A stretch of 32,000 nt of DNA from Puniceicoccales bacterium (GCA_031283585.1 JAITBP010000002.1:1-32000), one strand, 5' to 3'. Counted from the stretch's first letter, positions 2,820-25,496 are shown. Notes: generated by a model from the letters alone, not told the origin. Numbers and translations: made by a program.

Positions 2820-3500
2820 ATGAAAAATAGCAATGGACACAGACAAAACCTGCGAGAAAGATTTCTGAAGGCCGGCTTTGATTGTTTTGCAGAACATGAA
2901 ATTCTAGAGCTGCTATTAACATTATGCATTCCAAGAAAAGATGTTAAGACCCAGGCCAAGGAATTACTACAACGGTTCGGCTCGTTAAGTGAGGTTTTAG
3001 ATGCTGATATTGAAAAATTGCAGGAAATAAAAGGCATAGGTAAAACCACGGCCATCGCCCTCCATATTATAAGGAACGCCGCCGCGCTGTACTTGCAAAA
3101 ATCGGCGGAAAACACCAGGGTAAAATTCGACACAACCTCAAAATTGGAAAATTTTTGGCAAATAAGGATTGGCCATTTAAACCACGAAGTGTTCGAGGTC
3201 GCCTACTTGGATAAGCAGTTGCGTCTGCTCAGGAACGGAATAGAAAGAATAGAAGAGGGAATCATCGACCGAGCTAACGTATTCCCTCGCAAGATAATAG
3301 AACATTCCATAAGAAAAGGAGCCTGCGGAATTGTTCTCGCGCATAATCACCCATCCGGCTCGGAACGGCCATCGGTCTCCGATGAGCGCATAACCAAATC
3401 CATCGTGTACATATGCAATTCACTTTGCATTCGCGTCCTAGACCATATAATAGTCGCTCGAAATTCGGTATTTTCGTTTAGAAGAGCCAACTTGTTGTAG
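2820..3500 (+). CDS. radC: RadC-family JAB/MPN-domain protein (UPF0758)
   Basis: N-terminal 'HRQNLRERFLKAGFDCFAEHEILELLL', a helix-hairpin-helix 'LQEIKGIGKTTAIAL', and the JAMM motif 'LAHNHPSGSERPSVSDERIT'. Confidence 0.9.
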   Translation: MKNSNGHRQNLRERFLKAGFDCFAEHEILELLLTLCIPRKDVKTQAKELLQRFGSLSEVLDADIEKLQEIKGIGKTTAIALHIIRNAAALYLQKSAENTRVKFDTTSKLENFWQIRIGHLNHEVFEVAYLDKQLRLLRNGIERIEEGIIDRANVFPRKIIEHSIRKGACGIVLAHNHPSGSERPSVSDERITKSIVYICNSLCIRVLDHIIVARNSVFSFRRANLL

Positions 3501-3521
3501 TTAAACATCTTAGTATTTTAT

Positions 3522-3878
3522 TCAAAAGGCACTTTTCCTTCTAATCAGGTTATCCACATAATCTCTCAGCTCTTCCAGCTGGGACCTTGGCCTATGGGAT
3601 AATAAATCGGTCACCCGATCCAAAAAGTCTGCGGGAGAATAATTTGCAGTCTCGAGCAGGTATAGCAAAATGCCATCTCGATGGATACGGTAGGATTTCC
3701 TTTTCTCCATGCCTTTCGGAGTCCGGCCGTTGGCCACGTGGCCAAGGATTTTTTGGTTATCAAAGGCATCCCGAACGTATTGGTCTGTCTTACCTATTAT
3801 TGATGCCATCTCCTTGGGCGAAAACCAGTTTTGGTGCGGAACCATAAATCCAAAATGATTATTATCGTTAACATTCAT
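3522..3878 (-). CDS. small DNA-binding protein, excisionase/MerR-like HTH (putative)
   Basis: 'FSPKEMASIIGKTDQYVRDAFDNQKILGH...YRIHRDGILLYL' resembles excisionase-type winged HTH domains. An AAGGA SD lies 8 nt upstream of the ATG. It starts 9 nt after the stop of the 74-aa ORF. Confidence 0.5.
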   Translation of the reverse strand: MNVNDNNHFGFMVPHQNWFSPKEMASIIGKTDQYVRDAFDNQKILGHVANGRTPKGMEKRKSYRIHRDGILLYLLETANYSPADFLDRVTDLLSHRPRSQLEELRDYVDNLIRRKSAF

Positions 3879-3887
3879 ATTTCATCC

Positions 3888-4112
3888 TTATAAAAAAAAT
3901 TTATCACATAACCCTGACATGGACAGTTTTATGGCCCTGATATTGCGATCCACTTTTCCGAGGGCAGCAGCATACTCGCGAAGTTTTGTTGCAGTGGTTT
4001 TATTTGGGATAAAGTCAGCAATAATGTCATATAATTCGACCCTATCGCTGACTTTTTCAGATTCCAGTTTCGTAAGAATATACTCGATTAACTTATATAC
4101 TGGGTCTTTCAT
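3888..4112 (-). CDS. hypothetical 74-aa protein, first gene of a two-gene minus-strand operon
   Basis: Open frame with a helical-looking product and no recognisable motif. The call rests on its position directly upstream of the 118-aa HTH gene and downstream of a candidate promoter. Confidence 0.4.
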   Translation of the reverse strand: MKDPVYKLIEYILTKLESEKVSDRVELYDIIADFIPNKTTATKLREYAAALGKVDRNIRAIKLSMSGLCDKFFL

Positions 4113-4190
4113 TTCATCTTTTGGTTCTATGAATTGGGCAGTTCACAGATATAAATCTATCACCTATTGATTTATTGAGGATAGAACTAA

Positions 4191-4256
4191 TTGCTAAAAA
4201 ACAAATTATTGTTATCATATCTCTCTATGATATGTAATTTTTACACTTTTTAGCAA
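4191..4256. promoter_or_regulatory. nested inverted repeats forming symmetric, overlapping face-to-face promoters or operators
   Basis: Outer inverted repeat TTGCTAAAAA (4191-4200) / TTTTTAGCAA (4247-4256); inner repeat TATCATA (4213-4219) / TATGATA (4226-4232). Plus strand: TTGCTA -35, 16 nt, TATCAT -10. Minus strand: TTGCTA -35, 18 nt, TATCAT -10. Confidence 0.45.
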
Positions 4257-4293
4257 AAATCAAACAAATTCTATCTTTAAGTAGAAAAATTTT

Positions 4294-4864: not shown

Positions 4865-5701
4865 CTAAAGTTTAGTTTTATTCCTCGGATCGTCGCTAGT
4901 CGTCGGTCCGTAGTTTTTTACAATACAGCTAGCGATTTTTAAAGCTGACCCGTATTGCAACACTTCGCCCCGGGCATTTTCTTTCATAAATAGCTTACCT
5001 CCAGGCATTTCGACAATGACGTCATTTCCACAGATGTTCAACTTTTTTGATACGGCAAAGGCGGCACAGGCACCACTGCCAGAGGCCAGGGTATAGCCCA
5101 CACCGCGTTCCCATATCTGTATCTGTATCAATGAGTTCGATATCACCTTCAGGAATTGCACATTGGTCCGCCGAGGGAACAGTGGCAATCTTTCCACCAG
5201 TGGGCCGATCCTTTTTGTATTATCAACATCGAGATCATCCACATAGATCACGCAATGGGGATTTCCAAAGGACAGGGCATGCAACTCTACCACTTGACCA
5301 TCAATGTGTTGCAAAAAATCTGCCGGAGCAGGAATGTTTGTGTCGCTGAACCTCGGCCTTCCCATATTCACACATATTTCATCGCCAAATTTACTGCACC
5401 TAGACTCACCTGATGGCGTAGTTATAACCAGCTCGTCCGCCGACGTAATTCCTTCGTCCCAAACGAATTTCGCGAATATCCTCAGGCCGTTACCACTCTT
5501 CTCGGCAACGCTAGCATCCGGATTGAATATCTCAAGCTTGAACCTGTTGTCACCGAGTCTGTTACCGATCAGTACTCCGTCAGAGCCAATGCCATAATGA
5601 CTGTCACAGACGGTCCTTATGGTGGGAGCGTCCAACCCCCTGCCATCCTCATCTCTAAATATCAAGTAGGCATTCCCGAGGGCCTGATATTTTTCAAACA
5701 T
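4865..5701 (-). CDS. dapF: diaminopimelate epimerase homolog with Ser at both catalytic Cys positions
   Basis: DapF-like along its full length: 'ALGNAYLIF', 'IFNPDASVAEKSGNGLR', 'FGNPHCVIYVDD', 'FPRRTNVQF', 'WERGVGYTLASGSGACAA'. ATG at 5701; an alternative GTG lies at 5707. Confidence 0.85.
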   Translation of the reverse strand: MFEKYQALGNAYLIFRDEDGRGLDAPTIRTVCDSHYGIGSDGVLIGNRLGDNRFKLEIFNPDASVAEKSGNGLRIFAKFVWDEGITSADELVITTPSGESRCSKFGDEICVNMGRPRFSDTNIPAPADFLQHIDGQVVELHALSFGNPHCVIYVDDLDVDNTKRIGPLVERLPLFPRRTNVQFLKVISNSLIQIQIWERGVGYTLASGSGACAAFAVSKKLNICGNDVIVEMPGGKLFMKENARGEVLQYGSALKIASCIVKNYGPTTSDDPRNKTKL

Positions 5702-5794
5702 CAACACGATTGCGGGTTATAACCGCCACAAAAATGCTTGGCAACCAAAATATATTTGTTGCTAATGGGCTCTGTCGCTATTCATTACGAAACA

Positions 5795-8295: not shown

Positions 8296-9360
8296 TCAAT
8301 CTACCGATATCTCTTGACCGGAGAAGAACTTACGTAATATCTTTGCACGCATGATATCGCGAAACTCTGGCAGAGCAGCTTCATCGGAAAACACCATCAG
8401 GTGGCCTTTTTGGATTTCCAGCATATACCTATCTATGCCGTTTCGATAGGACAACGGCAAAATTTCTCGCTCCGAAGCCAGCCTCATCCAGGATAAAAGC
8501 TCGAAAGCTTCACTACCTCCGATCTTGTAGCAGGATCGCAAAATTCCGTAGGCTCTGCAAATTTTGTCCAAAATAAAAGACCTCGCCGACTTGAATATCC
8601 TGTCTCTCGCCAAATTTTCATGTTCCGTAACTGTCTTAGCCACATGCTCCATTTTCATTATTATGTCCTGTTCAGACAACCCCAGCGTGTGTTGATTCGA
8701 CAGCTGAAAAATGTTACCGAAAGCGTTCGTGCCCTCGCCCAGAACGCCCCTGACCGTAACACCGATCTTATTGAGCGCACCTATGGTATGCTGAATTTGC
8801 TTATCTATCACCAGGCCAGGGAGATGCATCATGACCGAAGCCCTCATCCCGGTGCCAATATTTGTCGGGCAGGCGGTCAAATAACCAAGCCTTTTGTCAA
8901 AAGCAAAATCGCCGCCATCTAGATTGTCATCGATCGCACCTATAACAGTCCAAAGGGCCTTCAATCCCATGCCACCTCTAAGTGCTTGTATACGAAGATG
9001 ATCTTCCTCATTTACCATGATCGAAATGGTCTGATCATTGCTGCAAGCCACGCAGGCACTGGGCAGCGACAGCTCCTTGCTTATGATATAATGTTCGCAT
9101 AGGGCAAGTTTTTCATGGTCTTTCAACTCATTGATCCTGAAAAAAACACCGTCACTTAACTGCTTCAGTTTAATTAACTTAGACTCCGCCACCGAGGCAA
9201 TACTATCACGCTCTGCATCGCTGGCCCAATGCGGAAATCTATGGCTAATCAGGTTTCGCGCCAGCCTGATTCTTGAGCTCAAAACCACATCCTTTTGCTG
9301 GCCAACGTCGCCAAAAAATTTACCACTACTCAGCAAAAACTGTTTTACACTTTTCATCAA
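8296..9360 (-). CDS. mcsB: protein arginine kinase (ATP:guanido phosphotransferase)
   Basis: 'SSRIRLARNL', 'VNEEDHLRIQ' and 'CPTNIGTGMRASVMMHLPGL' are phosphagen-kinase/McsB motifs. Its start overlaps the mcsA stop by 4 nt. Confidence 0.9.
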   Translation of the reverse strand: MMKSVKQFLLSSGKFFGDVGQQKDVVLSSRIRLARNLISHRFPHWASDAERDSIASVAESKLIKLKQLSDGVFFRINELKDHEKLALCEHYIISKELSLPSACVACSNDQTISIMVNEEDHLRIQALRGGMGLKALWTVIGAIDDNLDGGDFAFDKRLGYLTACPTNIGTGMRASVMMHLPGLVIDKQIQHTIGALNKIGVTVRGVLGEGTNAFGNIFQLSNQHTLGLSEQDIIMKMEHVAKTVTEHENLARDRIFKSARSFILDKICRAYGILRSCYKIGGSEAFELLSWMRLASEREILPLSYRNGIDRYMLEIQKGHLMVFSDEAALPEFRDIMRAKILRKFFSGQEISVD

Positions 9361-9854
9361 AATTGCGACCTCAACTGGTCCCTTAGTTTTGCTGCATCTT
9401 CAAATCGTTCTTCTGCTATCGCCCGTTTCATGGCCTCTTCAAGGGATTCCCGTGAATCATTCAAGTTGGTATTCAAAGACTTATCATCCATATGGCCAGG
9501 AATTTTTCCAATATGCTTCGTACTTTTTTGCAAATTTTCGATGGTTTTTATCATGAAATCATACATCCCTGAGTAACATTTCGGACAGCCAACAAACCCG
9601 GTTTCTTTATAATTTGACAGCGAAAAACCACAGCCATCGCAGCTGCAAACCGGACTAAAAGATAGCGCTTGCATCTTGCTGATCAGTGCACTGCCAATAT
9701 TCTTAAGTATCGATAAATGAGGAACATCTGACTCAAATATGCCACATTTCTGGGCACAGGCATTGCACAAAGATATCTCCTGCATGCTGTCGTTCACAAT
9801 CTGCGTCATCTGCACCATCGCAGGGTTTCCACAAAGGTAACATTTACTATCCAT
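9357..9854 (-). CDS. mcsA: McsA-like protein with four Cys-pair zinc motifs and a UVR domain
   Basis: CxxC pairs 'CYLCG', 'CNACAQKC', 'CSCDGCG' and 'CPKC', plus the UvrB/UvrC-type motif 'LEEAMKRAIAEERFEDAAKLRDQL'. ATG 9854 is preferred over TTG 9893. Confidence 0.8.
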   Translation of the reverse strand: MDSKCYLCGNPAMVQMTQIVNDSMQEISLCNACAQKCGIFESDVPHLSILKNIGSALISKMQALSFSPVCSCDGCGFSLSNYKETGFVGCPKCYSGMYDFMIKTIENLQKSTKHIGKIPGHMDDKSLNTNLNDSRESLEEAMKRAIAEERFEDAAKLRDQLRSQF

Positions 9855-9902
9855 GACTACCGATAATATGACCCGTAAAATTAATGCAATCAATCAAAAT
9901 CA

Positions 9903-10937
9903 TTATTGTTTTAACTTACTGATAGCCTTCATGTTAAGGTAATAACGATAGACACCGTTCACAATTGCCAACGCGGTCTTTTCTAGATTACCCTGTGCCG
10001 TAAACAGCCTAGCAACAGTGTCATTTGAAAGAAACTCCACCTCCACAAGCACTCCCGGACAGCTGAGACCTTTCAAAACACCAAACCTGGCATGCTTGAC
10101 CCCGCGATCATCGAATTTTAATCGCTGCTTCATCGAATACAGCATTGAATAGCCAGCAACCGTGTTCCAATGATCAAACCGGTTTCCCGGCAGAGCTATT
10201 GAATCAGAAGTCGTTTTCTTAGAACTAGAAGAAGATGGCTGCCCCGGCGGAGTCAATGTAAAAATTTCCACACCTCTCACGGATTTAGTATTGGCCGAAT
10301 TGAAATGTATGCTCAAAAAAAGATCTGCTTTTGCCCTGTTTGCCGCATTCACCCTATCGGCCAACTCCAGGTGAGCATCGCTGTTCCTTGTAAGGATCGC
10401 ATTGAATCCCAATGTCTTAAGTTCAGTCTGCACAATCTTTGCAACGGCCAGGGTTAAATTTTTTTCTTCCAACTTATAACCGCGATTAGTCGTACCACTA
10501 TCCCTGCCACCATGGCCAGGATCGATAACAATGGTCTTTAATCCGGGAACGGAATTTGCGATGGATCTAGGAGCAAACATCGGCTGGACATATAACTTGT
10601 AATCGTCTATGGCGATATATAACTTTTTCTGTTGCAAGAGGATAGGGCTGCCAATAAAAATTTTACAATCGTTATAATAGAAATACCTATCCTTCGAAAC
10701 AAACTTTGCCGATATGTCGGACTTGGAAATGGTCGCACTGTAATTGGATGAACAAATTTTAGCATCCAAATCCTTTGCCACGGAGTCCAGCGTAACATAC
10801 TCTGTCCCAGCGCTTTTTATGCAGACCAACCCAGGTTTTTGACCCACGTCGGCCCGGAACAGCTTCCCCTGGCAATTTATGACAAAAACCAGGCAGATAA
10901 TAACAACAAAAGTGGACAATAACAGACGAACGGACAT
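9903..10937 (-). CDS. N-acetylmuramoyl-L-alanine amidase (Amidase_3, AmiA/AmiC-like) with a signal peptide and an N-terminal targeting-like domain
   Basis: 'VIDPGHGGRDSGT', 'EEKNLTLAVA', 'ADLFLSIHFNS', 'GVEIF' and 'VLVEVEFLSN' match the zinc ligands and catalytic Glu of Amidase_3. The N-terminus is hydrophobic. Confidence 0.9.
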   Translation of the reverse strand: MSVRLLLSTFVVIICLVFVINCQGKLFRADVGQKPGLVCIKSAGTEYVTLDSVAKDLDAKICSSNYSATISKSDISAKFVSKDRYFYYNDCKIFIGSPILLQQKKLYIAIDDYKLYVQPMFAPRSIANSVPGLKTIVIDPGHGGRDSGTTNRGYKLEEKNLTLAVAKIVQTELKTLGFNAILTRNSDAHLELADRVNAANRAKADLFLSIHFNSANTKSVRGVEIFTLTPPGQPSSSSSKKTTSDSIALPGNRFDHWNTVAGYSMLYSMKQRLKFDDRGVKHARFGVLKGLSCPGVLVEVEFLSNDTVARLFTAQGNLEKTALAIVNGVYRYYLNMKAISKLKQ

Positions 10938-20526: not shown

Positions 20527-22416
20527 ATGGATGAGTTAGAATACAGGCTTGGGTTAAAAAAAATCCGCCTAATATTGCTCTATATAGTCCTGTTTGGCCT
20601 GGCAATTTTTCTGGCAACTGGCATGTTTTGGCGTCAGATAATTTGCTACGAACATTTTTTGCAAAAAGAACGACACCAAAATCTTAGAAGAATCCTGGTA
20701 CCCGCACCGCGAGGTAATATATATGACCGAAATGGCAACCCTCTTGCCCATAATTCGCCCAGCCACGAGTTGCTGCTCTATCTACCATTGCTTCGCAGTG
20801 AATTTAACCAGGAATATGTCAATCTTCTTCGAAGCGCAAGGGCTTCTGGCATAAATACAAACAAAAAAAATCTACAGATCGAAGCCCGTAAAAATATAAT
20901 TCAAAAATACATGGACCAGGTCAGGGCACTAACCCATAGAAACCTGTCCGTGACTCCGGCACAGATCGAACGCCATTATAACAAAGAACTGCTGCTGCCA
21001 TTTGTACTGATGGGTAATCTGACCGATCTGGAATACGTAACACTGGTAGAAAACATCGCCCCGGACTCACCATTACGGATTGGGACAGAATATGTTAGGT
21101 CCTATCCTCGGGGCACAGCAGCCTGCCATGTGATTGGCTACGTAACATCCACCAAAACACTGGGAGGCCTGGATAATAACATAACCACATTTCGCCAATA
21201 TAATAAGCTGGGCAAAGCTGGCATTGAACTGATAATGAATGACTTGCTAAGCGGAACCTCGGGTGAAGAAATCCTCTCGGTGGATCCATCTGGGTTTAAA
21301 GCCCAAACCACCGAGTTCAGAAACCCTGAGAAAGGCCAGGACTGTTATATAAGCATAGACATAGATCTACAGCAGGTTGCCGAAACCTCCCTCGGCGACA
21401 AAATTGGCAGTGTCGTGGTCCTGGACGTGCGCACCGGCGAAGTACTTGTGATGGCAAGTAAGCCGAATTATGACCTTGGAAAGATGAGTCCACGCATAAC
21501 CAATGAAATTTTTAGCAAAATATCCGCAGAAACCGGCTGGCTAAATCGATCAACCCAGGGACTATATCCGCCGGGGTCCACATTTAAGCTCCTGTCGGCC
21601 ATAGCATTCCTAAAATCTGGCACGGCAACCTGGGATCCAGCGGATACCGAACTTTGCCAGGGCAGCACGATGATTGGTACAGGAAAATTTCGCTGCGATA
21701 ACCATCGCGCCCATGGAAAAATCGGATTACACGAAGCCATCAAAAAAAGCTGTAATGTATATTTTTATAATCGCAGCCAAAAATGTGGCATAGACTTCAT
21801 AAGCAAGGAAGCCCACAGGTTTGGACTAGACTCTAAAACCGGCCTGGAGTTGCCCTACGAAACCTCAAAAATGATTGTGCCGACCAAAACCTGGAAAATC
21901 GCTAAAAATCTAGGACCCTGGTTGGGCGGTGACACGGCCAACACGTCCATCGGCCAGGGATACCTACGGCTAACACCGCTGCAAATGGCCTGCTTCACCG
22001 CCTCGGTGGCCAGAAATGAAACCAGAACCACTCCCCATATTATACATGAAGAAAACAGACCATCCCAACAGGGTTGCCACGAAGAAATAGGCCTCAGCAA
22101 CGATGACTACACAAAGCTTATCTCAGCCTTCGAAGATGCGGTCAATGGTGGAACCTGTTGGCGTGCAAGGATACAAGGACTGCGTGTCGCCGGTAAAACC
22201 GGCACAGCCCAGGTATGGGAAAACGGCAAAAAAAGGAACGTGGCCTGGTTTATAGGATTCGCACCGGTGGAAGATCCTCAAATCGCCATCGCCGTGGCTG
22301 TACAAGAAAAATCCGAATCGGACAGCTACTACGGTTCAACCCATGCGGCGCCCCTGGCTAAAGATACCATGGAATACTATTTTTCTAAATTTTTAAACAA
22401 AATTCCATGCCCTTGA
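20527..22416 (+). CDS. mrdA: penicillin-binding protein 2 (class B transpeptidase)
   Basis: N-terminal transmembrane anchor and the pedestal motif 'RGNIYDRNGNPLA'. The transpeptidase motifs are SxxK 'STFK', SxN 'SCN' and 'KTGTAQ'. Confidence 0.9.
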   Translation: MDELEYRLGLKKIRLILLYIVLFGLAIFLATGMFWRQIICYEHFLQKERHQNLRRILVPAPRGNIYDRNGNPLAHNSPSHELLLYLPLLRSEFNQEYVNLLRSARASGINTNKKNLQIEARKNIIQKYMDQVRALTHRNLSVTPAQIERHYNKELLLPFVLMGNLTDLEYVTLVENIAPDSPLRIGTEYVRSYPRGTAACHVIGYVTSTKTLGGLDNNITTFRQYNKLGKAGIELIMNDLLSGTSGEEILSVDPSGFKAQTTEFRNPEKGQDCYISIDIDLQQVAETSLGDKIGSVVVLDVRTGEVLVMASKPNYDLGKMSPRITNEIFSKISAETGWLNRSTQGLYPPGSTFKLLSAIAFLKSGTATWDPADTELCQGSTMIGTGKFRCDNHRAHGKIGLHEAIKKSCNVYFYNRSQKCGIDFISKEAHRFGLDSKTGLELPYETSKMIVPTKTWKIAKNLGPWLGGDTANTSIGQGYLRLTPLQMACFTASVARNETRTTPHIIHEENRPSQQGCHEEIGLSNDDYTKLISAFEDAVNGGTCWRARIQGLRVAGKTGTAQVWENGKKRNVAWFIGFAPVEDPQIAIAVAVQEKSESDSYYGSTHAAPLAKDTMEYYFSKFLNKIPCP

Positions 22417-22461
22417 CTAAAGATTCTTGATGTTTTGGCTCCAAAAGCTAAGGTCAGGTTT

Positions 22462-24012
22462 ATGTCCGAAGCTATTTTGAACCAAATACGTGAAGAAATC
22501 AATGCCATCAGGTTCTCCTGTCAAAAGAAAAACCTAGGTGAAATAGTGGAACTTGCCGATGGAGTTGCCCTGGTCGAAGGTCTATCCGGAGCGATGGCCA
22601 ATGAGATGATATCGTTTGGCAATAGCATATTTGGCATAGCCCTAAATCTCGAGGAGGACTACGTGGGCGTCGTTTTGCTCGGTGACAGCACAGGCCTAAA
22701 AGAAGGTGATCAGGCGGAAACCACTGGTAGGCTCCTGTCCGTACCGGTGGGCATGGCATTGCTTGGTCGGATCATCGACCCACTGGGAAACCCGTTGGAT
22801 GGCAAGGGACAGTTAGACCGCAGCACCATGTACCCTATGGAAAAGCCTGCACCGGGCATTATGGCCAGAAAATCTGTCACCCAACCGCTCCAGACCGGGA
22901 TAATTGCGATCGATGCGATGATACCGATAGGCCGGGGTCAAAGGGAACTGATAATCGGCGATCGATCCACCGGCAAAAGCGCCATAGCCATAGATACGAT
23001 CATCAATCAGGCCAGGATAAATCGCGCTGGAATCGCCAGCAAAGACAAGGATTTTCGACCTGTGTATTCGATCTATGTGGCGATTGGTCAAAAAAATTCC
23101 ACCGTGGCCAGAACCATACAGCTTCTGACCGAAACCGGTGCATTGGATTACACCGTTGTGGTGAATTCTCCGGCCGCCGACAATCCGGCCAATCAATATC
23201 TGGCACCCTACGCCGGTTGTGCTATCGGTGAATGGTTTATGGAACATGGCCAGGATGCGTTAATTGTATACGATGACCTTTCTAAACACGCCACCGCCTA
23301 TCGACAGATATCGCTGGTTCTGAAGCGTCCATCGGGGCGTGAAGCCTATCCAGGTGATGTGTTTTATCTGCATTCCAGGTTGCTTGAAAGGTCGGCAAAA
23401 TTGAATGAAGACCTGGGTAATGGTTCGCTGACCGCTCTGCCCATAATAGAAACCCAGGCCGGGGATGTTTCGGCCTACATTCCCACCAACGTCATATCCA
23501 TCACCGATGGCCAAATTTTCCTGGATACAGATCTATTCAACCGAGGCATTAGGCCAGCAATCTCGGTGGGAATCTCAGTATCAAGAGTCGGGTCAGCGGC
23601 CCAGTTGAAAGCATTTAAACAACTGGCCAACAAATTAAAGCTCCAGCTCGGCCAATACTACGAACTAGCTGCCTTTGCCCAATTCGGTTCGGATCTGGAT
23701 CAAAACACCCAGCAACAGCTAGACCGTGGGGCCCGGATCGTAGAGTTATTCAAGCAGTCGACATCAAAGCCCAAGGACATAGGTGAGCAACTCCTAATAC
23801 TCTGGGCCATAAATCACGGCATTTTCGATGACATTCCATTGCCCAGTGCATTGGAAGCCTCGGACCAGGTGATTGCCCACTGCCAGGCCACCTCCATCGA
23901 TTTGCTGAATTCGATCATCTCTAAAAAAGAAATAACCGACGAACTGAACCAACAGTTGGACACGGTGATCTCTTCCTGGAAACAATCTTTCCTAGCCAAT
24001 TCACCGGCCTAA
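22462..24012 (+). CDS. atpA: F1 ATP synthase alpha subunit, without neighbouring atp genes
   Basis: Collinear with E. coli AtpA: '[26 protein letters not shown]', the P-loop 'GDRSTGKS', 'YVAIGQK.STVA', '[43 protein letters not shown]', '[29 protein letters not shown]' and '[10 protein letters not shown]'. An AAGG SD precedes ATG 22462. Confidence 0.9.
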
Positions 24013-25339: not shown

Positions 25340-25415
25340 TGGTGGAGCCGATCGGGTTCGAACCGACGACCTCCACAATGCCATTGTGGCGCTCTTCCAA
25401 CTGAGCTACGACCCC
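25340..25415 (-). tRNA. tRNA-Ala (anticodon GGC), CCA encoded
   Basis: Reverse complement: GGGGTCG-TA-GCTC-AGTTGGAA-GAGC-G-CCACA-ATGGCAT-TGTGG-AGGTC-GTCGG-TTCGAAC-CCGAT-CGGCTCC-A-CCA. It folds as a cloverleaf with the G3:U70 Ala identity pair. Confidence 0.9.
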
Positions 25416-25419
25416 ATTC

Positions 25420-25496
25420 TGGCACACCCCACAGGAGTCGAACCTGCAACCTTCTGATCCGTAGTCAGATGCTCTATCCAATTGAGCTAGGGGTGC
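25420..25496 (-). tRNA. tRNA-Arg (anticodon ACG), CCA encoded
   Basis: Reverse complement: GCACCCC-TA-GCTC-AATTGGATA-GAGC-A-TCTGA-CTACGGA-TCAGA-AGGTT-GCAGG-TTCGACT-CCTGT-GGGGTGT-G-CCA. It resembles bacterial tRNA-Arg(ACG), with a G1:U72 wobble in the acceptor stem. Confidence 0.88.

Follow-up and report, generated by a model that had tools for sequence, protein, structure and literature searches.

A widespread DapF subfamily with serine at both catalytic cysteine positions, found in a Puniceicoccales bacterium and probably retaining diaminopimelate epimerase function

We analyzed a 32,000-nucleotide stretch of DNA from a Puniceicoccales bacterium (GCA_031283585.1 JAITBP010000002.1:1-32000; hereafter, the window), which carries on its minus strand a gene for a homolog of the diaminopimelate (DAP) epimerase DapF. 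DapF is the textbook cofactor-independent two-cysteine epimerase and an antibacterial target, the best inhibitors of which alkylate both cysteines. The protein encoded in the window has serine residues, Ser71 and Ser209, at both catalytic cysteine positions. Our analysis suggested, with a probability of about 0.65, that the gene encodes a working LL-/meso-DAP epimerase belonging to a distinct and ancient Ser/Ser subfamily of DapF, because this subfamily is conserved in many phyla within lysine and cell-wall gene clusters. Provided that the protein is a true epimerase, Ser71 and Ser209 would very probably be the proton-transfer residues. The catalytic activity, the role of both serines, and the status of the protein as the only DAP epimerase of the cell are inferred.

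The protein showed clear matches to the family models Pfam PF01678 (DAP_epimerase; 161.6 bits against a cutoff of 34.7, 1e-47, two repeats) and NCBIfam TIGR00652 (DapF equivalog; 204.9 bits against a cutoff of 114.65, residues 3–261). When all PDB chains were searched with phmmer, residues 3–251 aligned with residues 2–259 of Haemophilus influenzae DapF (E = 4e-46), and this alignment placed Ser71 on Cys73 and Ser209 on Cys217. Two engineered variants of H. influenzae DapF, C217S and C73S, ranked highest, and no member of the Ser/Ser clade was found among the PDB chains searched. An AlphaFold2 model constructed with 50 relatives in the alignment (pLDDT 94.2, pTM 0.90) had the two-domain alpha/beta fold of DapF with two central helices toward the active site. 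In the model, Ser71 and Ser209 immediately preceded helices 72–84 and 210–222, respectively, as the cysteines of DapF do. In a Foldseek search with the model, DapF structures ranked first (TM 0.82–0.87), and the Cys-type DapF structures of Escherichia coli and Pseudomonas aeruginosa were among the matches. The first-pass annotation, made from the sequence alone, had described a DapF homolog with serine in both catalytic cysteine columns; the PDB alignment, TIGR00652, and the model all agreed with this description, including the placement of both serines at the catalytic positions of H. influenzae DapF. The protein is therefore a member of the DapF family by homology and fold, but it is not a canonical DapF by the two-thiol hallmark of Cys73 and Cys217, in place of which it has Ser71 and Ser209.

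Reading of the strand gave gccgag aag AGT ggt aac ggc around Ser71 (AGT at 5497–5495) and ctg gcc TCT ggc agt ggt around Ser209 (TCT at 5083–5081), and each of the two codons is a single base from TGT. The reading frame was intact, with neither a stop nor a frameshift; in these respects the codons and the frame were as the first-pass annotation had read them. Public gene calls start at ATG 5701 and give a protein of 278 amino acids, and this ATG is likely the true start. In the first signature motif, AEKSGNGLR, the residues Glu69, Gly72, Asn73, and Arg76 are retained and the methionine of the canonical motif is replaced by Lys70; the motif is followed by Ile77 at a site where Cys/Cys relatives have cysteine. 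The consensus of the second motif is GxGYTLASGSSSCAA in the Ser/Ser subfamily, compared with GxGETLACGTGACA in canonical DapF. In the window protein, Tyr205 stands in for Glu213, and Gly212 is retained at a position occupied by serine in 92% of the clade. The coordinates of these elements are collected in Table 1.

The first-pass annotation had treated the gene as an isolated oddity, whereas database searches placed it in a large subfamily. In the first homology search, the list was headed by the protein itself and a Puniceicoccales ortholog with 70% identity, followed by 118 proteins with 42–53% identity; among these 120 matches listed, the first motif had serine in every case and the second motif in nearly all. 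Since this search was word-indexed and possibly biased toward words containing KSGNG, it was repeated with word-free phmmer against 1.84 billion cluster representatives, and the best 150 were scored at both sites. Ser/Ser pairs were found in 122 of the 150 and Cys/Cys pairs in 20, and the remaining states were Ser/Cys (three), Thr/Cys, Ser/Thr, Arg/Ser, Ser/Arg, and a gap at the second site (one each). In a neighbor-joining tree, a single clade contained all 20 Cys/Cys representatives, along with two of the Ser/Cys proteins and a stray Ser/Ser protein, and every other Ser/Ser protein lay outside this clade. The tree and the site states indicated that the Ser/Ser proteins form a large monophyletic subfamily of DapF across many phyla, with co-varying second-shell changes. 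The Ser/Ser state was found in the 70%-identical ortholog, in the 122 representatives, and in nearly all of 80 species loci used for codon and neighborhood counts. The hybrid pairs (Ser/Cys in P0149, P0187, and P0245; Thr/Cys in P0175; Ser/Thr in P0188; and TGT at the second site in one of the 80 loci) are possibly evolutionary intermediates, reversions, or products of independent origins; the stray Ser/Ser protein inside the Cys/Cys clade was P0258.

When one genome for each GTDB species was scanned, a Ser/Ser-type relative was detected in at least 589 species. Among the matches listed were Verrucomicrobiota (Puniceicoccales, Opitutales, and Limisphaerales), Pirellulales, Acidobacteriota, Chloroflexota, Bacteroidales/Prolixibacteraceae, Desulfobacteraceae and other deltaproteobacterial groups, SAR324, Aquificota, Trueperaceae, Spirochaetaceae, and Ignavibacteriota, as well as Pseudomonas, Ewingella, Rahnella, Mangrovibacter, Cellvibrio, Nostoc, Aphanothece, and a Clostridium. 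The Ser/Ser gene was absent from the 5,426 E. coli genomes searched. Matches in the collections of plasmids and E. coli genomes were limited to canonical dapF with less than 40% identity, mostly in large records resembling chromosomes or megaplasmids. A full-text literature search with incomplete coverage returned no description of a natural Ser/Ser DapF, and a prior description is possible. A divergent Ser/Ser subgroup (P0183, P0221, and P0253) had the motif CDRSANGIR, and P0183 is fused to a GntC/VioD-like pyridoxal 5'-phosphate (PLP) enzyme similar to capreomycidine synthase; this fusion suggests that the subgroup contributes to the synthesis of non-proteinogenic amino acids or natural products and not to DAP metabolism.

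In an alignment of 50 diverse Ser/Ser members with approximately 40% identity, both serines were invariant, as were the neighboring G-N-G-x-R and G. At the 80 loci, the first serine was encoded by AGC (56), AGT (19), TCC (3), or TCG (1), and the second by TCN (69) or AGY (10), with TGT in one locus. The use of both AGY and TCN at both sites indicated that serine was kept through switches between unconnected codon families. The 70%-identical ortholog comes from an independent metagenome-assembled genome (MAG), GCA_031255005.1, and a comparison of it with the window gene gave a nonsynonymous rate (dN) of 0.20, a synonymous rate (dS) of 1.4, and a dN/dS ratio of 0.14. The two MAGs share the synteny infC, amiA, mcsA, mcsB, tgt, a major facilitator superfamily (MFS) gene, the dapF-like gene, a helix-turn-helix (HTH) gene, RadC, LysR, rpsI, and rplM. 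These data bear on the explanation that the serine pair arose by sequencing or assembly error, or that the gene is a decaying pseudogene in a MAG. The single-base distance of each codon from TGT and the origin of the window in a metagenome assembly would be in keeping with such an artifact. However, both serines are present in the syntenic sister-MAG ortholog and the Ser/Ser state is shared by hundreds of independent genomes; the frame is intact, the model is confident (pLDDT 94), and the dN/dS ratio of 0.14 shows purifying selection. Clade-wide serine, the codon-family switches, and the sister ortholog thus exclude sequencing error and pseudogenization, and we regard the chance that either accounts for the pair as negligible.

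To locate what was kept and what was changed in the active site, column frequencies were compared between the 122 Ser/Ser and the 20 Cys/Cys representatives (H. influenzae numbering). Asn11, Asn64, Gly74, Asn75, Asn157, His159, Asn190, Glu208, Arg209, and Gly218 were conserved at 95% or more in both groups, and position 219 was Ser or Thr at the same level. In the Anabaena, Arabidopsis, and Haemophilus structures, this set of residues binds the proximal carboxylate and amine of aziDAP as well as its distal L-center (PMC12039745). The window protein has all of these residues contacting both ends of DAP, from Asn11 to Ser/Thr219. Clade-specific switches were found near the catalytic pair: Phe13 to Tyr (95%), residue 72 to mostly Lys, Cys73 to Ser, Cys79 to Ile, Glu192 to Gln, residue 213 to mostly Tyr instead of Glu, Cys217 to Ser, and Gly220 to Ser. 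The groups also differed at Leu/Ile46, Val206 (to Ile), and Leu242 (to Met). This pattern of substitution indicated that the substrate pocket was kept while the catalytic shell was remodeled, which is the opposite of a change of substrate and is unlike neutral decay.

From these features, a mechanism can be proposed for the Ser/Ser protein as an epimerase. With a canonical fold and a complete DAP pocket, the protein should enclose LL-DAP like DapF. Ser71 and Ser209, located at the N-termini of both central helices and at the positive ends of the helix dipoles, would face the reacting C-alpha and would act as base and acid on opposite faces of C-alpha in a 1,1-proton transfer that may be direct or may proceed via a short relay or water. 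The co-evolved second shell (Phe13 to Tyr, 72 to Lys, Cys79 to Ile, Glu192 to Gln, Glu213 to Tyr, and Gly220 to Ser) would support the pair, with the added tyrosine, lysine, and extra serine hydroxyl tuning its pKa. The product, meso-DAP, would be used by MurE for peptidoglycan and by LysA for lysine.

The same switches could be read in another way, in which the protein is a true epimerase whose proton transfer is performed by Tyr14, Lys70, Tyr205, an ordered water, a cofactor, or a metal, and both serines only position the substrate. The coordinated changes at positions 13, 72, 192, 213, and 220 would fit such a replacement of the acid/base groups. In canonical DapF, the catalytic sulfurs lack a basic residue in their vicinity (PMC12039745), so that the lysine of the Ser/Ser clade is a real difference, and chlamydial DapF demonstrates that the fold supports a PLP-dependent side activity (PMC5885031). 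On the other hand, Lys70 and Tyr205 are not invariant, since Ile, Met, Arg, His, and Phe also occur at these sites, and Tyr at position 13 is found in 35% of Cys/Cys relatives as well. The two serines are the sole strictly invariant clade-specific residues, and proton transfer by other groups is considered quite improbable. A role of Lys70 as a PLP Schiff-base lysine was ruled out because the position is not invariant.

We examined the surroundings of the Ser/Ser genes at the 80 loci. The gene for DapL (LL-DAP aminotransferase, TIGR03542, 613 bits) was located one to three genes away in nine loci. LysA was fused to the Ser/Ser gene in two loci and was encoded at most four genes away in nine more. 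In two Verrucomicrobia MAGs (L008 and L026), the order was Ser/Ser-dapF, dapA (+1), dapB (+2). A DAP or lysine gene was present within six genes in 14 of the 80 loci, for which a rough estimate of chance is a few percent. Fusions between LysA and Ser/Ser DapF were found in P0133 and P0151 (LysA model above cutoff) and at loci L024 and L044, a fusion with MurE, the meso-DAP-adding ligase, in P0206 (above cutoff), and fusions with alanine racemase (Alr) in P0171 and P0219. The neighbors and fusion partners thus include the enzyme that makes LL-DAP (DapL) and the enzymes that use meso-DAP (LysA and MurE). Other Ser/Ser DapF domains were fused to GGACT (gamma-glutamyl cyclotransferase-like; P0170), a methyltransferase (P0211), and GNAT acetyltransferase domains (P0012 and P0035). 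No conserved neighborhood was universal to the 80 loci, and the association with dap and lys genes was lineage-specific. A second DapF-like gene was found neither in the window nor in the 10 kb on either side of the 80 loci.

In Verrucomicrobium spinosum, the DapL pathway was verified biochemically, and neither a gene for Ddh nor Ddh activity is present (PMC3390587). Only one dapF is annotated in this species, VspiD_010100011375, and its locus tag runs consecutively with those of dapA and dapB (PMC3390587), an arrangement matching that of the two Verrucomicrobia MAGs above. This dapF (VSP_RS11565) was scored as essential by transposon sequencing (PMC12283558 Data S7). The MurE of V. spinosum is specific for meso-DAP. 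By analogy of the operons, V. spinosum DapF is probably also of the Ser/Ser type; this assignment is based on operon orthology. A cluster-member look-up and protein searches seeded with Bacteroidales and Verrucomicrobia members of the clade gave MAG or metagenome relatives only, with no match from V. spinosum, Akkermansia, or Bacteroides. We tentatively propose that the Ser/Ser DapF may, throughout entire lineages (Verrucomicrobiota, Planctomycetota, many Bacteroidales, Chloroflexota, deltaproteobacterial groups, and others), be the sole, essential, and cofactor-independent epimerase, with an oxygen acid-base pair in place of the thiol pair regarded as universal in this enzyme class.

Several observations weigh against an epimerase function. 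The window gene is outside any dap operon; it is solitary, divergent from the MFS transporter gene and convergent with the HTH gene, with tgt and mcsB further on. Pseudomonas, Enterobacterales, cyanobacteria, and Clostridium normally carry a Cys/Cys DapF. Their Ser/Ser copies lie amid transporters, a gene resembling flavin adenine dinucleotide-dependent amino-acid oxidases, AraC, and a methyl-accepting chemotaxis protein gene. The cyanobacterial copies are approximately 70% identical to those of Verrucomicrobia and the Clostridium copy approximately 66% identical to that of Bacteroidales, which indicates horizontal transfer of these copies; gamma-proteobacteria, cyanobacteria, and Clostridium presumably acquired the Ser/Ser gene horizontally as a second copy. 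At near-neutral pH, the hydroxyl of serine performs far worse as an acid/base. Mutation of Cys to Ser hinders catalysis in canonical DapF and in the histidine racemase HisR (PMC11602996, PMC12039745). E. coli without dapF grows normally (bioRxiv 10.1101/2024.10.14.618325), so a weak or absent epimerase is tolerable in some organisms, and a PLP-dependent alternative epimerase, DapF2, exists (PMC9026213; bioRxiv 10.1101/2024.10.14.618325).

These points would be accounted for if the Ser/Ser proteins were a paralogous DAP-binding family with another role and meso-DAP were produced by an enzyme elsewhere in the genome. The other role might be elimination or isomerization, or a non-catalytic function in DAP binding, regulation, or activation of a partner, and the separate source of meso-DAP might be a Cys/Cys DapF, Ddh, the PLP-dependent DapF2, or a promiscuous racemase. 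Such a paralog would explain the lack of both textbook catalytic residues, the hindered Cys-to-Ser mutants, the solitary position of the window gene, and the presumed extra copies with unrelated neighbors, and it draws on the dispensability of dapF in E. coli, the existence of DapF2, and the second, non-catalytic role of E. coli DapF as a partner of RppH (PDB 6D13). The distribution also includes Trueperaceae, relatives of Deinococcota, in which the Ser/Ser gene was found at two loci (L018 and L023). Relatives of Trueperaceae are usually described as building ornithine-type peptidoglycan and as making lysine by the aminoadipate route. If these traits hold for the two MAGs, the Ser/Ser gene may have another role there. 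Against a paralogous role, a new substrate or chemistry would alter the pocket, yet every DAP contact is kept, and pure binding would not require both serines to persist unchanged while their codons switched families. The neighbors and fusion partners are exactly DapL, which supplies LL-DAP, and LysA and MurE, which use meso-DAP, and no second DapF-like gene lies near any of the loci. A paralogous role is the main rival reading; it is considered unlikely, though clearly less so than proton transfer by other groups. The retained DAP contacts, the invariant serines, the dN/dS ratio of 0.14, and the dap/lys neighbors and fusions point instead to a genuine epimerase with a Ser/Ser pair. The first-pass annotation had offered three options: a pseudoenzyme, a neofunctionalized isomerase or dehydratase, and an epimerase with serine chemistry. 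The last was best supported by the conserved pocket and by the context and fusions of the clade; a decayed pseudogene was refuted, as was sequencing error, which the annotation had also raised.

Comparison with known systems placed the protein closest to canonical DapF (PDB 1GQZ/2GKE, E. coli 4IJZ, and Anabaena 9MRO), with which it shares the two-domain fold (TM 0.82–0.87, 32–35% identity), the DAP contacts, the location of the catalytic pair at two helix N-termini, and, at the level of the clade, the neighbors dapL, lysA, dapA/B, and murE. It differs in having Ser/Ser in place of the Cys73/Cys217 thiol-thiolate pair and Ile in place of Cys79, and the clade forms a separate branch. The C73S and C217S mutants of H. 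influenzae DapF (2Q9H and 2Q9J) and the C67S and C209S mutants of HisR have serine at one catalytic site of the same scaffold. Whereas these are single laboratory changes that trap the open form, the window protein is a natural double-serine form with compensating changes around the pair.

Natural hydroxyl residues at one catalytic site are found in other racemase-related enzymes. The 3-hydroxyproline dehydratases of the proline-racemase family (PDB 6R76 and 4K7G) carry a Cys/Thr pair. The E. coli Asp/Glu racemase EcL-DER has Thr in place of one Cys (PMC8142540). In both cases the directionality or chemistry is altered and the hydroxyl is present at one site, whereas the Ser/Ser clade has it at both; the fold of EcL-DER also differs from that of the DapF-like window protein. 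The window protein showed a remote fold likeness to the proline-racemase family (12–14% identity, TM approximately 0.7), the substrates and contexts of which differ, and neither Pfam nor NCBIfam gave a match to that family. Identity as a dehydratase of the proline-racemase family was rejected, since the likeness is at the level of the fold only. PhzF/YddE (PF02567) was likewise not matched as a Pfam family and showed fold-level likeness with 12–13% identity. DapF2 of Staphylococcus, a PLP-dependent and alanine-racemase-like enzyme found via its lysine-operon context, is another non-canonical answer to the same step (PMC9026213); its fold is unrelated and it requires a cofactor, representing a non-orthologous displacement, whereas the Ser/Ser protein is a variant of DapF. 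The bifunctional DapF/glutamate racemase of chlamydiae (NF038284) is a DapF from the Planctomycetes-Verrucomicrobia-Chlamydiae superphylum with a remodeled pocket, and it retains Cys72 and Cys207 (PMC5885031). Identity of the window protein with this enzyme was rejected, as the NF038284 score was 54.9 bits against a cutoff of 350 and the chlamydial cysteine pair is retained.

Away from the dapF-like gene, the window also encodes PBP2, an Amidase_3 amidase, and further housekeeping proteins, the first two in agreement with the cell-wall context named by the first-pass annotation. A McsB-type protein-arginine kinase (ATP:guanido phosphotransferase) is encoded together with an upstream McsA-like protein next to amiA and infC, and the pair is kept in the sister MAG. 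McsA/McsB pairs are typical of Firmicutes, and this one occurs in a Verrucomicrobium. Directly after the PBP2 gene is an F1-ATPase alpha-type gene; the two open reading frames past it had no Pfam match, and an atp operon was not obvious. Between RadC and the HTH gene, public calls contain two small genes of 74 and 118 amino acids, of which the former was recovered in our analysis; both lacked a Pfam match and were kept in the sister MAG, and these genes beside the HTH regulator might form a toxin-antitoxin-like or mobile module. No riboswitch or other RNA element was found near the dapF-like gene, and Rfam detected only two adjacent tRNAs in the window. On the syntenic contig of the sister MAG (L082, 12996–15386), a 796-amino-acid protein gave faint ankyrin-repeat matches; together with a GC content of approximately 42%, this ankyrin-like protein hints at a host-associated lifestyle for these Puniceicoccales.

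Table 1. Positions of the dapF-like gene, its sequence elements, and other features of the window
Feature	Position	Strand	Remarks
DapF-like gene, Ser/Ser subfamily	4865..5707	-	280 aa from GTG 5707, stop included
Asn12-Ala13-Tyr14	5666..5674	-	Asn12 = Asn11, proximal-amine ligand; Tyr14 replaces Phe13
Motif AEKSGNGLR, residues 68–76	5480..5506	-	Subfamily signature; canonical counterpart AEMCGNGxR
Codon AGT, Ser71	5495..5497	-	Column of catalytic Cys73 (H. influenzae numbering); directly before helix 72–84
Glu200-Arg201	5105..5110	-	Conserved equivalents of Glu208-Arg209; distal amino and carboxyl ligands of DAP (roles per PMC12039745)
Motif GVGYTLASGSGACAA, residues 202–216	5060..5104	-	Contains Ser209 as TLASGSGACAA
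Codon TCT, Ser209	5081..5083	-	Column of catalytic Cys217; directly before helix 210–222
Two small genes, RadC to HTH	3500..4290	-	74 and 118 aa in public calls
74-aa open reading frame	3888..4112	-	Recovered here
McsB-type kinase and McsA-like UVR-motif protein	8296..9893	-	354 aa and 178 aa
Amidase_3 amidase	9903..10937
PBP2	20527..22416
F1-ATPase alpha-type gene	22435..24012	+	ATP-synt_ab N, central, and C domains
tRNA-Ala(GGC), tRNA-Arg(ACG)	25340..25496	-	Only Rfam/ARAGORN matches in the window

If the Ser/Ser proteins are active, a weakly acidic hydroxyl pair in a tuned environment would abstract the alpha-proton of an amino acid with neither PLP nor a metal, and this would be a new catalytic solution for enzymology and biocatalysis. 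An oxygen pair of this kind, if real, would be insensitive to thiol-directed inhibitors and to the inactivation by oxidative disulfide formation described for Cys-type DapF. Thiol-directed inhibitors and Cys-based signatures would then fail for a sizable part of bacterial diversity, Verrucomicrobia and environmental Bacteroidales included. If the clade is inactive instead, the annotation as diaminopimelate epimerase would be wrong in thousands of genomes, and a different enzyme would have to serve the DapL pathway of these lineages.

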